A stretch of DNA of 64,000 bases. It comes from Chiloscyllium plagiosum. Its lineage: Eukaryota. Position numbers and translations under genes: made by a program. The notes under the pieces were generated by a model. The model was not told the origin of the DNA and did no database searches. It saw only the letters and a list, made by a program, of their open reading frames with translations. Where the stretch lies: contig NC_057758.1 in the NCBI RefSeq assembly GCF_004010195.1, positions 1,446,927 through 1,510,926 of the forward strand. The letters are read 5' to 3'. Positions 1 to 47,335 of the stretch are shown in pieces (the stretch's first letter is position 1; every line of letters starts with the position of its first letter).

Positions 1-423
1 AGATGGAGTTGGAACTGGAGCTGGAGCTGGAACTGAATCTGGTGCTGGAGCTGGTGCTGGTGTTGGACCTGGAGCTGAAGTTCTCGTTGGTGCTGGAACT
101 GGTGTTGGAGTTCGAGCTGATGCTGGAGTTTGAGCTAATTTTGGAGCTGGAGATAGAACTGGAGCTGTAGCTGTAGCTGGAGCTTTTGTTGGAGCTGGCG
201 CTGGTGCTGGAGGAGCTGCAGCTGGTGCTGGACCTAGCGCTGGAGCTGCAGTTGCAGCTGGTGCTTGATGCAGAGTTGGTGCTGTTGCTGGAGCTGGTAT
301 TGGAGCTGGTGCTGGAGGTGGACCTGGAGCCAGAGGTAGTGCTGGAGGTGGACCTGGAGCTGCAGATGGAGCTGGTGCTGGAGTGGTGACGTTTCGGTTC
401 AGAGTGACAACTTCCCGTTTAAT
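1..423 (-). pseudogene. Pro/Ala/Thr-rich open frame (IKREVVTLNRNVTTPAPAPSAAPGPPPALPLAPG...), running off the window; possible C-terminal tail of the minus-strand defensin-like model
   Basis: 141 stop-free codons on the minus strand built from degenerate CCAGCT/CCAGCA hexamers. A Ser/Thr-rich frame is also open over the repeat. Begins immediately at the 3' tail of a CR1 insertion. Confidence 0.4.
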
Positions 424-427
424 CTTT

Positions 428-2004
428 AGAGTCGTCGAGCCATAGTGTCCTACAGCATGGAGACAAGTCATTTGACCCAAACTGGTGCATGCTGACGAAC
501 TTGTCCAACCCACCCTAACACCATTTCCCTAACCTTAGCCCGTATACTTCTGGATCTTTCCTAACCATGTATTTGTTTAAAAGTCTTTTAAATGTTATTA
601 ATGGAGCTCCTTAAAGACTTCTGCTTGCAGCTCATTCTATATATGTACTATGTCTGTCTCAAAACAATGACACTCAGGTTCGCTACTAAACTTAAACTGA
701 TGCCCTCCAGTCCTCGATTCTCCAACCCGAGTAAAAAGAATCATTGCATTCACCCTATCCATGCATCTCATGATCTTGTACACTTCTATCAGATTCCCCC
801 CTCAGTTTCTTATGTTTTAAAGAAATAGTCCTCGCTTGTCCAACCTCTCCGTATAACGCAGACCCTCGAGTCCAGGCAACATCCTTGTAACCTTTGTCTG
901 CATACTTGCCTATTTAAATAACATCCTTTCAAAGGCAAGATGACAAAAACTCAACACGATACTCCACGTGTGGCCACACCAACGCCTTGTAAAACTGCAA
1001 CATAACTTCCCAACTTCTACACTCAATGCTCTGACTAATGGAAACCAGTATCAACAGCCTTCTCCAATGTCCTCTCTACCTGTGACTCTGAAAGAGAACT
1101 GTGCACATGAACTTCGAGATCCCTCTGTTTCACTATACTCCTTAGGGCCCCACCATTCACCATGAAACTCCTACCTTGATTTGACTTTCCAAGCTGCAGG
1201 ACCTCACACTGTCAAAGGTCTTGTTAGGGCGGCATGGCAGCTCAGTGGTTAGCACTGCTGCCTCACAGCATCGGGGAGTTAGGTTCGATCTCTGTCTCGG
1301 GCGACCGTCTGTGTAGAGTTTGTACATTCTCCCCGTGACTGCGCGGGTTTGCTCCGCTTTCCTCAGGTGAATTGGCCATTATAAATTGCCCATAGTGTTA
1401 GATGCATTAGTTAGCGATAAATATAGGGTAGGGAAAATGATCTTGGTGGGTTATCCTTTGGAGGGTTGGTGTGCACTTATTAACCCTAATGGCCTGTTTC
1501 CGTACGATGAGATGGAGGGAATATAATTTAATCAAATTGCACTACATTTGTCATTTTCTGGTCCACTTCACCAGCTGGTTTATGTCCTGCTACAATTTTT
1601 GATAACCTTCCTCACTGTCCACGATACTGCCTATTTTATTGTCATCTGCAAACGTACTAATTGTGCCTTGTACCTTTTCATCCAAATCATTGATACAGAT
1701 AACAAACAGTAATGGGCCCAACACCAATCGCTGAGGCACTCCACTGATCACAGACTCCAGGCCCAGAAGCATCCTTCCACTCTCGCCCTCTGCTTCTTAC
1801 CATCCAGCCAACTGTGAATCCAACTTGCCAGCTCGTCCTGGATTCCATACCGTCTAACCTTCCAAAACAGCTTACCAAGTGGAACATTAGCAAAGGTCTT
1901 ACTGAAATCTATATCGACTGCGTCTACTGCCCTTCCCTCGTCATCCTTGCTTGTCACTTCGTAGAAGAACTCTAAGAAATTTGTGAGACACTATCTCCCA
2001 CACA
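428..2004 (-). mobile_element. 5'-truncated CR1 LINE (RT and 3' end), interrupted by a SINE
   Basis: ORF fragments with VDAVDIDFSKTF, SGVPQ and FADDNKIG motifs; GACTCTA-like tail near 428-445. Confidence 0.9.
1227..1530 (+). mobile_element. HE1-type tRNA-derived SINE
   Basis: GGGCGGCATGGCAGCTCAGTGGTTAGCACTGCTGCCTCACAGC head, B-box-like GGTTCGATC, LINE-like tail. Confidence 0.85.
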
Positions 2005-2128
2005 ATGGGACTAACGAAGTAACATTTATGAACCAAAAACACTTATTACGGATCAAACCTTCATCGCTCTGACAAGACCCTTGTCGACATGTCCCTCCTC
2101 CAATTCTGTGACATCCAAAGATCGCACC
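1991..2128 (-). pseudogene. Candidate exon C: beta-defensin-like Cys-rich segment (GAIFGCHRIGGGTCRQGSCQSDEGLIRNKCF...)
   Basis: Strong acceptor TTCTTGTTTTCCTTTAG|G at 2129/2128. Phase-0 frame gives C-x7-C-x4-C-x10-C with GGTC and C-x3-E. An alternative frame after a T5 run gives LVHKCYFV. Truncated by CR1 at about 2004. Confidence 0.4.
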
Positions 2129-2144
2129 CTAAAGGAAAACAAGA

Positions 2145-3040
2145 ACAGTTGTGTAATAAGGCCGCACTCGTTGAAATGTGTACAATTTTAGTCTCCCTGT
2201 TATAGAAAAAAACGCAGTTAAACTGGGAAGAGTGCAAAGAAGATTGTGGATGTTGTCAGGATAACTTTGCCTGAGTAATAAAGAAAGGTGGACCAGGGTA
2301 GAATCAACTTCCTTGGAAAGTAGGAGAATGTGTGGTAAAGTTATAAGATCATGAGAGGTCATAGGGCAAATGCATAGAGTTTTTTTCTCAGGGATGGGGA
2401 ATTGAAAACTAGAGGTGAGGGGGAAAGGTTTAAGAAGGACCTGAGGAGCAACTTCTTCACAAAGAATGGGGTGCATTAATGGATAGGGCTCCCAGAGAAA
2501 GGGGTTCAGGAAGGTACAATAGTAAAATATAAAATACATTTGGATAATTAGAATCATAGAATCCGTACAGTGTGTAAACAGGACCTTTGACCCAACAAAT
2601 TCACACCCACACTCCGTAGAATAACCCACTCAGTCCCGTTCCCCATTATGCTACGTTTACCCCTGACTAATGCACCTAACCTATGCATCCATCAACACTG
2701 TTGGCATTTTAGCATGGCCAATTCACCTAATCTTCACATCTTTGTATTGTCGGAGAAAACCAGAGCACCAGGAGAAAACCCACGCAGACACGGGGGGAAT
2801 GTACAAGCTCCACACAGTCAGCTGATGCTGGAATTAAATCCTGTACCATAGCTCTGTGAGGCAGGAGTACTAACCACTGAGCCACCGTGCCGCCCTGCAC
2901 GGTAGATGGATGTGAAAGGTTTGGCGGGACATGGACCAAATCCAGACTATTGGAACTAGCCGAGTGGACACCGTGGTCAGCATGGGACAGTTTGTGCTGA
3001 AGGGTCTGTTTCGATGCTGAATTATTCAATGACTTTGTGA
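2145..3040 (+). mobile_element. CR1 LINE 3' fragment with nested minus-strand HE1 SINE (about 2548-2895)
   Basis: Degenerate [10 protein letters not shown] and YKIMRG regions; SINE head GCCACCGTGCCGCCC at about 2881-2895. Confidence 0.8.
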
Positions 3041-3049
3041 CAAATTAGA

Positions 3050-3900
3050 TGCAGCCAAGACCTCTCACTATGCTCCCAATTTGGTCCGATCGGGGAGCTG
3101 GACTAGACATTTCGCTCTGTATAATCAGAATAGGGGAGAATGGATAGAAACTGACCACTATGTTCTTAATGTGTTCTGTTAAGGGAGGGGAAGGCAGGGA
3201 GTGTACACTGTGCTCCCAGTGTGGTCTGTTAGGGGAGGATAAGGCATGGACTGCAAACTGTACCCCCAGTGTGGTCCAAATACTTCTGGTGGAGGCAGAG
3301 ACTGTGCACTGTACTGCCAGTGTGGCCAGAACAGGGCTCTTTGTTCCTAGTGTTGTTTAGAAGGGAAGATGGAGGGACGAACTGGGGATGGTGCTAGCAG
3401 TATGGGACGAGAACTGTGCACTTATTTAAAGTGTCCAAACACGGGAGATGCAGGGAGGGACAATGAACTGTGCTCCCAGTGCAGTCCAAGCAGCGGAGAT
3501 AGAGGCAGGAAATATGCATCGTGTTCCCAGTGCGGTCTTAATAGAACAAATGGTGGCAAGGACTGGACTGTGTGCTTCCAGTGCGGACTGAATAAGCGAG
3601 ATGGAGGTAGAGACTGTACACTATGCTTCCAGTGAGTTCTGAACACCGGAAATGGAGGCAGAGACTGTGCACTGCTTTCCCAATTCGGTCTGAACAGGAG
3701 TGAATGAAGGAGGGACAGTGCACCGTGCTCCCAATATGGTCTGAACAGGGCAGATGGAGGCAGGGACTGTAGACTATGTTCCCAGTGCATTCTGAACACC
3801 AGAGATGGAGGCAGAGACTGTGCACTGTTTTCCCAATATGGTCTGAACAGGGGTGATTGAAGGAGGGACTATGCACTGCACTCTTGGTGTGGCCTAACTG
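3050..3900 (-). repeat. About 51-bp degenerate tandem repeat derived from a CR1 ORF2 motif
   Basis: Minus-strand translation has a 17-aa period (RPHWEHSVQSLPP), resembling CR1 [13 protein letters not shown]. Confidence 0.75.
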
Positions 3901-3965
3901 ATGAACTCTGACACCAGAATTGTCATAATCAACAACTTCGAAGTATGCAAAAGGGTTTAACATAC

Positions 3966-4102
3966 AGACAGCTGATAACCAAGTACAAAATTGAGAACTC
4001 TATCAAATTTGGAAACAGTCTCAAACTCAGTTGGCTCATAAGTGACAGATCTCTTCATGAAGCAAGGCGAAAATCTAGAATTAAATTGGGGTGGTCTCTT
4101 AT
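3966..4102 (-). CDS. Candidate exon B (pro-region; (D)KRPPQFNSRFSPCFMKRSVTYEPTEFETVSKFDRVLNFVLGYQLS)
   Basis: Acceptor CTGCCGTTCATCTAG|AT (phase 1), donor TCT|GTATGT (phase 0), no stops; phases fit exons A and C. Confidence 0.3.
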
Positions 4103-4225
4103 CTAGATGAACGGCAGTTCTGGTACATGTGGGTAGATCATTTCTTCTCGTATCTACCAATGAATCATCAGATTGGCGATTTATCGGTTCCGTTACCCAC
4201 ATGGAGAAACCGTGTTCTCATTCAC

Positions 4226-4292
4226 CATTCAGAAGCAATGGGCTATCCCAGCACAGGAAACATACCCATACCGAGAGCAGTACTTCCCACAT
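4226..4292 (-). CDS. Candidate exon A coding part: signal-peptide-like MWEVLLSVWVCFLCWDSPLLLN
   Basis: Acceptor TCTTCTCGGTGTCTTTCAG at 4309/4308, ATG in AAGATGT context at 4292, donor ATG|GTGAAT (phase 1) at 4226/4225. Confidence 0.3.
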
Positions 4293-4484
4293 CTTCAGCT
4301 GATCTCCTCTGAAAGACACCGAGAAGACCAGATTCTACAAGCCACTTATAACAACACACATTGTCTTAGGTGATTGAACACAAGCACTTCATAAGCACTT
4401 CATCCAACTTGGGCATGTTGAATGGACAGTTGTCGAGCCAAATGATACTCCTCACAAATTTTTCCAAGCTTCTCACCAATGTTA

Positions 4485-6334: not shown

Positions 6335-7030
6335 AGTGTGAGAGAGACACACAAAGAGATAGCGTGAAGACAGACCGAGAGGAAAGGGAGGTACGAGAAC
6401 AGAACTATAATGATACAAAGGAAGCGAATGAGATTAAGAAGTGAAAACAACAGAGATCATGATATGGACAGAGTGGGAGAGAAGGAAGGGAGGAATCCAG
6501 CGATTAAGAGAGTCGGGAAAGAAGGAGAAATTGGAGTAAGGCGGCGCTGTGGATAGACGGGTAAAAATGGAAATGGAAAGGAGAGGGAAAGAAAGAGAGA
6601 AAAGAAGGAAATGAGACAGAGAGAGAGAGAGAGAATTGAGATAGTGGTCGAGACAAAAGTAAGTCGATGAAAGGATTAGAGAACAAGAAGGAATCATACA
6701 ATCAAAGAATCATACAGAACAGATGCAGCTATTTGGCCCATCAAGTCTGTAATGCCAATAATATGGAGAGTGTTGGAAAAATTGAAAGACAGTGACGCAG
6801 AGAGAGAGCTCAGAGAATTATTCTTGGAAGGATACGGTCTAACATCATTTTCTGTCTCAGGTTTCCAGTCCCAGAATGGCCAGAGTTCTGTGCAGAGAGC
6901 GAATTCCTGGGGAAAGGTTGTCAATGTTGCAAGTCCGCACTAACATTGTCCATCTCTCTCTCTCTCTNNNNNNNNNNNNNNNNNNNNNNNNNNNNNNNNN
7001 NNNNNNNNNNNNNNNNNNNNNNNNTCTCTC
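6335..7030. repeat. GA/CT-rich low-complexity region including a 57-N gap (6968-7024)
   Basis: Purine-rich runs; (CT)n flanks the gap. Confidence 0.8.
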
Positions 7031-40660: not shown

Positions 40661-41181
40661 ATACCAAGCATACAACCATGCGGTATCGAAGAAGCTGTTT
40701 CGCCCATTGAGTCTGAACCAATAGTCAACAGAAATCCATCAATTAGCATGAAATATCGCCTTTAGAATATTTCTCGTGAATTTTTATCTTGCACTGATAG
40801 TGATGACTTTTTAATCTGCTCTTCCAGGATATTTGAAGGGGAGGATTTGAAGGAAGAATTCTGGAACTGACAAGATTTGAAATCAATCAATCTGTCAGGA
40901 TCTGAATGTCATAGATCTTTAACCATGGAAGAAGAAATATTCCTCTCATCAGTCTGCTTCACAAGGTTTAAAAAATGAATGTGACTGGAGAAAGATTGTG
41001 AGACACACATGAATGAGAGTGTTTTAGTGCTCTGACAGTGAAGAAAAGCTGTAACTAATTTAACAGCCTGAAAAAGAAATTATAGTTCACAGCAGAGAGA
41101 GGAAGAGAGACCATACGTATGTTCTGTGTGTGTGAACAAGGCTTCAACTGATTGTTAAACCCTGAGAGACACACTCTCAGC

Positions 41182-41856
41182 ATGAATAAATCCTGGAAAT
41201 GTGGACAATGTGGGGAAGGATTCCCTTCCCCATCTGCACTTGACATTCATGAGCGCAGACACACTGGAGAGAAGCCATTCACCTGTTTCATGTGTGAGAA
41301 AGGTTTCATTTCCGTCTCCAATCTGCTAAGACACCAGCAGCTTCACGCTGGCAAGCGACCATTCACCTGCTCTGCATGTGGGAAAGGATTCTGTGATTCA
41401 CACAACTTGCTGCAACACCAACGGATTCACACTGGGGAGAGGCCATTCGCCTGCTCTCATTGTGGCAAGGGATTCACACAGTTATCCAACCTGCATGTCC
41501 ACCAGCGCGTTCACACTGGGGAGAAGCCTTTCATTTGCTCTCAGTGCGGGAGGGGATTCACGCAGTTATCCAATCTGCAAACGCACCAGCGAGTTCACAC
41601 CGGGGAGAGGCCATTCATCTGCTCTCAGTGCAGGGAAGGATTCTCTCGATTATCCAACTTGCAGAAACACGAGCGAGTTCACACAGGGGAGAGACCGTTC
41701 ATCTGCTCTCAGTGTGGGAAGGGATTCACACAGTCATCCCACTTGCGGAAACACCAACAGATTCACACCAAGGAGAGGTCATTCACCTGCTCTCAGTGCG
41801 GGAAGGGATACAATCGATTCTCCAGTCTGCAGAAACACCAGCGAGATCACCAGTGA
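41182..41856 (+). CDS. C2H2 zinc-finger protein, 8 tandem fingers, 224 aa, no KRAB/SCAN domain
   Basis: Intact ORF MNKSWKCGQCGEGF... with eight CxxC-x12-HxxxH fingers and TGEKP/TGERP linkers; exon acceptor CTCTTCCAG|G at 40827/40828. Confidence 0.92.
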   Translation: MNKSWKCGQCGEGFPSPSALDIHERRHTGEKPFTCFMCEKGFISVSNLLRHQQLHAGKRPFTCSACGKGFCDSHNLLQHQRIHTGERPFACSHCGKGFTQLSNLHVHQRVHTGEKPFICSQCGRGFTQLSNLQTHQRVHTGERPFICSQCREGFSRLSNLQKHERVHTGERPFICSQCGKGFTQSSHLRKHQQIHTKERSFTCSQCGKGYNRFSSLQKHQRDHQ

Positions 41857-46835: not shown

Positions 46836-47335
46836 NNNNNNNNNNNNNNNNNNNNNNNNNNNNNNNNNNNNNNNNNNNNNNNNNNNNNNNNNNNNNNNNN
46901 NNNNNNNNNNNNNNNNNNNNNNNNNNNNNNNNNNNNNNNNNNNNNNNNNNNNNNNNNNNNNNNNNNNNNNNNNNNNNNNNNNNNNNNNNNNNNNNNNNNN
47001 NNNNNNNNNNNNNNNNNNNNNNNNNNNNNNNNNNNNNNNNNNNNNNNNNNNNNNNNNNNNNNNNNNNNNNNNNNNNNNNNNNNNNNNNNNNNNNNNNNNN
47101 NNNNNNNNNNNNNNNNNNNNNNNNNNNNNNNNNNNNNNNNNNNNNNNNNNNNNNNNNNNNNNNNNNNNNNNNNNNNNNNNNNNNNNNNNNNNNNNNNNNN
47201 NNNNNNNNNNNNNNNNNNNNNNNNNNNNNNNNNNNNNNNNNNNNNNNNNNNNNNNNNNNNNNNNNNNNNNNNNNNNNNNNNNNNNNNNNNNNNNNNNNNN
47301 NNNNNNNNNNNNNNNNNNNNNNNNNNNNNNNNNNN
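46836..47335. other. 500-N scaffold gap (round size, true length probably unknown)
   Basis: Exactly 500 Ns. Confidence 0.95.

Follow-up and report, generated by a model that had tools for sequence, protein, structure and literature searches.

A broken two-exon beta-defensin-type gene copy in Chiloscyllium plagiosum, with a Pro/Ala repeat that probably grew in its old 3′ untranslated region

Does the start of this stretch of bamboo-shark DNA hold a beta-defensin gene with a long Pro/Ala-rich tail, or the remains of a gene that never had one? The stretch, here called the window, comprises 64,000 nucleotides (nt) from Chiloscyllium plagiosum (G000:C49:1446927-1510926, within a 3.56-Gb genome). 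An earlier note had read its first 4.3 kb, on the minus strand, as a disabled three-exon gene (exons A, B and C) for a secreted beta-defensin-like peptide with a pro-region and a Pro/Ala/Thr tail, split by a long interspersed nuclear element (LINE). The three translations, the GT and AG dinucleotides, the phases and the 113-residue product of that model were all reproduced on the reference letters. Comparison with relatives in the same genome leads to another gene structure: the locus is probably a broken two-exon copy of a beta-defensin-type gene, and the Pro/Ala repeat a hexamer expansion in its old 3′ untranslated region (3′ UTR) that was never translated together with the defensin.

The DNA of the cysteine-bearing exon (exon C of the earlier model, exon 2 here) matches eight other places in the genome at 72–79%, and its translation meets a profile of 25 relatives with an independent E-value (iE) of 2.6e-9. 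This similarity is far beyond chance and the defensin exon is real, which bears out a beta-defensin-like shark gene. Descent from the family extends to both exons and their flanks, all of which are homologous to those of the paralogues. The cysteine core is incomplete: the reference reads Tyr at the sixth cysteine (C6), which adjoins C5 in the family, and so do the contigs of two samples from one study, X1 and X2, with no other letter listed there. Owing to one extra base, the acceptor of exon 2 is in phase 0, versus phase 1 in the family. A frameshift had also been ascribed to exon C, to be mended by a T added to the T5 run at 2035-2039; the variant base lies instead behind 2030, where the X1 and X2 contigs carry an extra base at full depth (15.2/15.2 and 10.3/10.3) that agrees with the paralogues. 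The frameshift is present in the reference and absent from both samples, so that the reference at 2030 is either an assembly error or an allele, and the change of C6 to Tyr is unaffected. The notion that another frame of exon C might be the conserved one was rejected, as the paralogues keep the cysteine frame. The features of the locus are as follows.

4346..4351, minus strand: TATA-like hexamer, 54 nt 5′ of the ATG and common to the paralogues, from alignment with them
4197..4292, minus strand: coding part of exon 1, homologue of the signal-peptide exon, 96 nt versus 94 nt in the family
4220..4226, minus strand: donor of the earlier model, GT at 4225, newly arisen inside sequence that is coding in the paralogues; its use is putative
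3966..4102, minus strand: "exon B" of the earlier model, which is intron 1 sequence with intron homologues in 7/7 loci
2129..4196, minus strand: intron 1
2011..2128, minus strand: exon 2, beta-defensin domain, C1–C5 kept, Tyr at C6
2030..2031, no strand: single base absent from the reference and present in the X1 and X2 contigs
427..2010, minus strand: 5′-truncated LINE, in the sense of the gene
364..426, minus strand: homologous to the paralogues around their stop codon and in the proximal 3′ UTR, double TGA not kept
1..384, minus strand: degenerate 6-nt repeat, first part (its core measures 900 nt)

The family to which this copy belongs is large. When one paralogue was used in a protein search, 48 of 55 candidates matched at E ≤ 10, spread over at least six large contigs, and the fetched loci encode 27 different exon-2 peptides with six cysteines. 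Some of the paralogues found on small contigs could be alleles, so these counts are not copy numbers. Its genes have two exons. GTAAG stands exactly 94 nt past the start codon, in phase 1, in 13 of the 18 loci examined, and intact 70-residue precursors with GT-AG introns of 409–887 nt were found in 7 of 11 loci (of the other four, one is frameshifted, one lacks the ATG and C1, and two were missed by the acceptor motif used). The N-termini show a run of about nine hydrophobic residues after the start, and the cysteine exon stops three to four codons past the last cysteine. Across an alignment of 25 members, G10, C12, R13, C17, C28, C34 and C35 are invariant; one row (L078) starts late, so the first cysteine is absent from it. 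The six cysteines of the intact paralogues follow the spacing C-x6-C-x4-C-x10-C-x5-CC, with GxC before C2 and a Glu four past C3. Intact relatives would, from what is known of such families, be predicted to act as secreted, disulfide-bonded host-defence peptides. In beta-defensins the disulfides pair 1-5, 2-4 and 3-6.

At E ≤ 1, 9 of the 25 aligned family members match PF00711 (best E 8.9e-6) and 10 match PF13841; the first member has no Pfam match, and L045 scores 17.8 against a curated cut-off of 22.2. An Atlas search put defensin clusters first (0.85), which we take as a lead only. The predicted model of one paralogue has three strands (predicted local distance difference test score 74.6), and defensins head its structural matches, at a weak level (best by VIA: hBD-2, Z 4.0, root-mean-square deviation 2.5, 36 aligned). 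Foldseek returned no match to this model at E ≤ 0.001. In the PDB, a single-sequence search was empty and a profile search reached defensins just at E 0.087–3.7; a word-index protein search with a paralogue exon, which is weak evidence, found nothing. The window copy, for which the earlier note had suggested a check by defensin profiles, had no match on its own in Pfam or in the Atlas. The search for relatives with a six-cysteine motif that the note had also suggested found many in the same genome and no intact one with a tail.

The region of exon A matches the paralogues at about 70%, and it carries several lesions. A 2-base insertion near codon 8–9 shifts the frame from about codon 9 and leads to a TGA at 4220–4218 (codon 25); two further stops, at 4245 and 4224, lie in the family frame, and the homologous donor has decayed to the weaker GTAAC. 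An assembly error is not behind these lesions, because the X1 contig spans 3870–4500 with 0 differences from the reference. With the homologous donor, the product has only 24 residues, and no open frame leads from the signal peptide to the cysteine core. Like the window copy, 12 of 12 paralogues have a stop at codon 25 when read in the shifted frame. As that stop was already in place, the insertion, which the earlier note had missed, would have been the real killing lesion and would have ended function at once, leaving any transcript to encode a 24-residue stub; the additional base at the acceptor of exon 2 would have brought no rescue. We rejected the +2 change in exon 1 and the +1 change at this acceptor as a compensating pair for the same reason. 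The signal peptide read from exon A does not hold past codon 8, where it follows this shifted frame; nor does the exon's end at 4226, since in the family exon 1 closes 94 nt past the ATG, which corresponds to 4197 here.

In all seven paralogous loci compared, the counterpart of "exon B" is intron 1 sequence, with an aligned acceptor AG in none of them and indels in all. Intron 1 of the window copy contains 153 stop-free, phase-compatible AG..GT segments, six of which, "exon B" included, are at least as good by two crude scores. Pfam had no match for "exon B", and exon A gave just a sub-threshold DUF594 match. We rejected "exon B" as a pro-region, as it aligns with paralogue intron and has no conserved acceptor. 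The three-exon model gives way to the two-exon layout, and the dibasic site likened to that of big defensins is lost with it, since "exon B" is intronic; no N-terminal domain or pro-region precedes the fold. The intron itself is stretched by 50–51-bp tandem repeats at 3170-3276 and 3438-3877, and also holds a high-copy short repeat (~2556-2897) and a high-copy repeat fragment (~2145-2550).

Three codons past the C6 position, the gene is interrupted by the LINE, which we take to be of the CR1 type. Homology to the paralogues breaks off at 2011 and picks up again near 426. Within the element, fragments of RVT_1 were matched at E 6.8e-5 and 2.2e-4, both below the curated cut-off; it is high-copy in the genome, shares a microhomology of ~3 nt with the host at its 5′ end, and contains a nested short repeat of opposite sense (~1227-1536). 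Its boundary, earlier placed at 2004, lies at ~2010-2013, so the last residues before the proposed join were LINE-derived. Measured against the majority of its nearest copies, this one shows differences at 62/464 and 113/762 sites (13–15%) and 3 frameshifting indels in 1226 nt. Judged from this divergence, the insertion is old. A probably disabled gene with the C6 replacement and a LINE insertion was correctly recognized in the earlier note.

Beyond the LINE, no stop interrupts the Pro/Ala frame between 423 and 1, as had been reported, and the frame runs further than was noted: another ~650 nt lie outside the window before it closes with a stop at G000:C49:1446278, a total of ~1.07 kb without stop or frameshift. 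The 900-nt hexamer core encodes 108 Pro, 85 Ala, 27 Thr and 20 Ser among 300 codons (64% Pro+Ala, 16% Ser+Thr), and its Ser/Thr frame is likewise open. After the core come 44 unique codons (the last 132 nt), homologous to the distal 3′ UTR of the paralogues, and the sequence ahead of it is homologous to their proximal 3′ UTR. 3′ UTR homologues thus lie on both sides of the tract, and the tail is quite likely a 3′ UTR repeat rather than a coding stalk. An ATTAAA poly(A)-type hexamer is present in 3/3 short paralogues and missing in the window copy and in three copies of a sister locus.

Whether the tail could ever have been joined to the defensin depends on the sequence before the LINE arrived. 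The best LINE-free junction (score 71.1) is out of frame and reaches a stop less than 10 codons past C6. In-frame junctions score 68.4 with the same left end, 69.6 for the best in-frame option and 66.5 for the join proposed in the earlier note, and the out-of-frame class is best in 48/48 scoring settings. Of 24 LINE copies examined, 19 have the end unit in question, and 14 of these continue with the disputed A of the junction as part of the element. The claim of an in-frame tail after LINE removal survives to the extent that a single base brings it into frame, and is otherwise opposed by the preferred junction, by the 3′ UTR homologues and by the lack of any intact tailed relative among those found. 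Codon positions in the tract tell the same way. Second positions have changed by 20%, versus 19% in a simulation in which an ideal repeat decayed with the LINE's mutation spectrum, and third-position G/C stands at 4% versus 8.5%; as these values resemble the neutral simulation, the decay looks neutral, with no sign of protein-level constraint.

The sister locus (C49:6762964, L038) and two near-identical small contigs (L039 and L040) carry the same tract, and the sister locus matches the window at 78% across part of intron 1. All three sister copies have stops and one or two frame switches within the tract. Exon 1 at this locus is Gly-rich and, in two of the three copies, open with a phase-1 donor. 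The sister copies have lost the defensin exon, which brings a pyrimidine-rich AG directly before the Pro/Ala repeat; the repeat frame runs into a stop after ~21 codons. A DNA search with the start of the tract, by a method that skips simple repeats, found just the window locus and these three copies. The window copy probably arose through duplication inside the defensin cluster, and the repeat would have grown from a short CCA/GCT-like stretch of the family 3′ UTR before the window and sister loci split.

Several observations weigh against an untranslated repeat. The frame of the junction hangs on one ambiguous base (71.1 versus 68.4 and 69.6). Under neutral decay at the level of the LINE, the chance of no stop in the tract would be 0.26 and that of no frameshift ~0.11–0.15, or ~0.03–0.04 jointly, with an indel rate drawn from just three events (a wide interval) in a post hoc test. 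No recent internal duplications (block identities 0.72–0.85) account for the open frame, and the copy has kept neither the two stop codons nor the poly(A) hexamer, a loss that a coding extension would need. Given the long-open frame, a coding episode of the tract has to be weighed. Of the accounts considered, continued coding alone would explain that frame, and an ancestral tail dying with its gene would not. This bears directly on the thought that the ancestor of the window and sister loci was a real tailed defensin, which lost its stops, was translated into the 3′ UTR and kept the hexamer expansion as a ~355-residue Pro/Ala/Thr stalk before both descendants died. The missing stops and hexamer, a repeat unit that is a multiple of three, the ~1.07 kb of open frame, an in-frame junction for which just one base must be assigned to the host, and a sister locus with the same tract and an open phase-1 exon 1 in two of three copies would all agree with it. 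Yet a death around the LINE insertion leaves the open frame as unlikely as it is for an untranslated repeat, the out-of-frame junction is favoured in every setting, 7/7 short paralogues have the homologous box in another frame than the defensin, and the tract lacks amino-acid-level constraint. No intact tailed copy was found, either in the DNA search or by a profile search of 1.84 billion representative proteins, which gave four matches, none tailed; P0004 among them is an unnamed six-cysteine protein, and P0001 and P0003, repetitive proteins matched over 11–15 positions, were set aside. Pfam had nothing for the tail. One apparent tailed paralogue, a 360-residue open frame at L069, was rejected as it rests on an N gap. 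We consider an ancestral tailed defensin unlikely.

The same open frame could instead belong to a protein without the defensin. On the reference letters, a splice between the 4226 donor and the AG of 451-450 yields a 388-residue open frame with a hydrophobic N-terminus, and the tract would then be, or recently have been, expressed as a secreted Pro/Ala-rich protein through an acceptor at the 3′ end of the LINE. That acceptor has 10/14 pyrimidines, the sister copies enter the tract in phase 1 from a similar AG, and no other account predicts a frame that is still open today. It would, however, require a new donor, a frameshifted leader and the skipping of a stronger exon-2 acceptor (13/14 pyrimidines); every AG in the repeat is in phase 1 by construction, and the sister tracts soon stop. 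A weak word-index protein search with the 44-residue unique C-terminus found nothing. RNA evidence is likewise a weak test: X5 and X7 gave no reads on the unique exons or the 3′ end, with depth or pieces on repeats alone (X5 is single-cell poly(A) material, ~2 in 100 reads examined, tissue not given). Expression of the tract by itself is therefore improbable in our view. Put together, the stalk may have been gained de novo by a shark beta-defensin through lost stops and hexamer expansion in its own 3′ UTR, and after loss of the defensin may have lived on as such a secreted protein; we regard this as a doubtful possibility. A live three-exon gene, with a new donor, an exonized piece of intron and a shifted acceptor, would produce a five-cysteine pro-defensin. 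Its phases add up and its frame is open, and the donor at 4226 matches 7/9 positions of what we take to be the consensus, versus 5/9 for the homologous donor. "Exon B" nevertheless has neither conserved acceptor nor frame in 7/7 loci, in an intron where such segments are common; the sixth cysteine is missing; the allele of X1 and X2 extends the product into the LINE; and no junction reads for the splice model were seen, again a weak test. We judge this account very improbable. A broken two-exon copy with an untranslated 3′ UTR repeat is the reading we retain.

Other members of the family show further variation. Exon 1 of L031, L033, L034, L041, L044, L046 and others conserves a seventh cysteine and an RGR motif at its end, possibly an inter-chain disulfide or a processing site. 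A second subfamily has an extra cysteine beside C3 (L051 3423-3536, plus strand; L050 6444-6557, minus strand), and at two places on C49 such a gene faces a short-type gene from ~4.3 kb away, as a duplicated gene pair. On contig C46, L121 holds two near-identical defensin exons (3744-3857 and 4127-4240, plus strand) 383 bp apart. About 17 kb ahead of the window lies an intact acidic six-cysteine exon (L113 2746-2859, minus strand), and L113 also contains a decayed defensin exon (743-817, plus strand). Modest tails do exist in the family, since the subfamilies of L130 (4430-4519, plus strand), L115 (3672-3839, plus strand) and L129 carry 20–25 residues at the C-terminus; one of them lacks C1. 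More broken copies, with frameshifts, stops or a lost ATG or cysteines, were seen at L050, L131, L043, L125, L126, L039 and L040, consistent with frequent gene death. Elsewhere in the window there are two N gaps (6968-7024 and 46836-47335, together 557 bases) and a 234-residue open frame with an 84-bp tandem array (41152-41853, plus strand) whose translation resembles C2H2 zinc fingers.

Among known systems, the closest are the vertebrate beta-defensins (Pfam PF00711 Defensin_beta and PF13841 Defensin_beta_2; hBD-2 1fd3, hBD-6 2lwl, mallard AvBD3 7lzl, crocodile CpoBD13 7t9q), with which the paralogues share the six-cysteine spacing, the GxC and the Glu four past C3. They differ in that the window copy is broken and without C6, and in that most family members carry the seventh cysteine in exon 1. 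In the available part of one source, human beta-defensin genes are described as consisting of two exons, one of which holds all six cysteines, and teleost genes as consisting of three, with the cysteines divided between two of them (PMC3978493); the shark layout is the human arrangement, unlike that of teleosts. A public protein of Chiloscyllium punctatum, chiPu_0020313 (GCC16467.1; UniRef A0A401REA7, named Beta-defensin), is matched by the family profile (E 3.1e-7). On visual comparison it is similar to the L076/L115 subfamily, a different one from that of the window copy, and has a 20-residue tail and no Pro/Ala repeat. Mammalian DEFB126, DEFB127, BBD119 and SPAG11B extend beyond the cysteine core into a long C-terminal tail that is potentially O-glycosylated, as the earlier model would have done. 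The DEFB127 tail measures 45 residues according to the part of the source available (PMC11521603), versus ~355 here, where the tract lies in 3′ UTR homologues and its in-frame status is putative. The C-terminal defensin fold of a big defensin (oyster big-defensin 1, 6qbk) is among the weak structural matches of the paralogue model; big defensins have an N-terminal domain or pro-region, whereas here there is none, the supposed pro-exon being intron.

Literature searches of titles and abstract openings found no work on shark defensins. The accessible part of a 2019 review names just transferrin, squalamine and kenojeinin I for sharks and skates, and no shark defensin (PMC6795676), and in the accessible part of a shark skin proteomics paper "defensin" appears in the references alone (PMC10707392). 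The shark beta-defensin family is real and under-described, with one public bamboo-shark protein already labelled beta-defensin. By itself the broken window copy matters little, as a further outcome of the birth and death of genes in this large family. If the tail was once coding, however, the locus would offer a traceable passage from an untranslated region to a defensin stalk of great length, in convergence with the sperm-coat defensins of mammals. The two-exon layout that the family shares with human and not with teleost genes bears on the ancestral gene structure of vertebrate beta-defensins.

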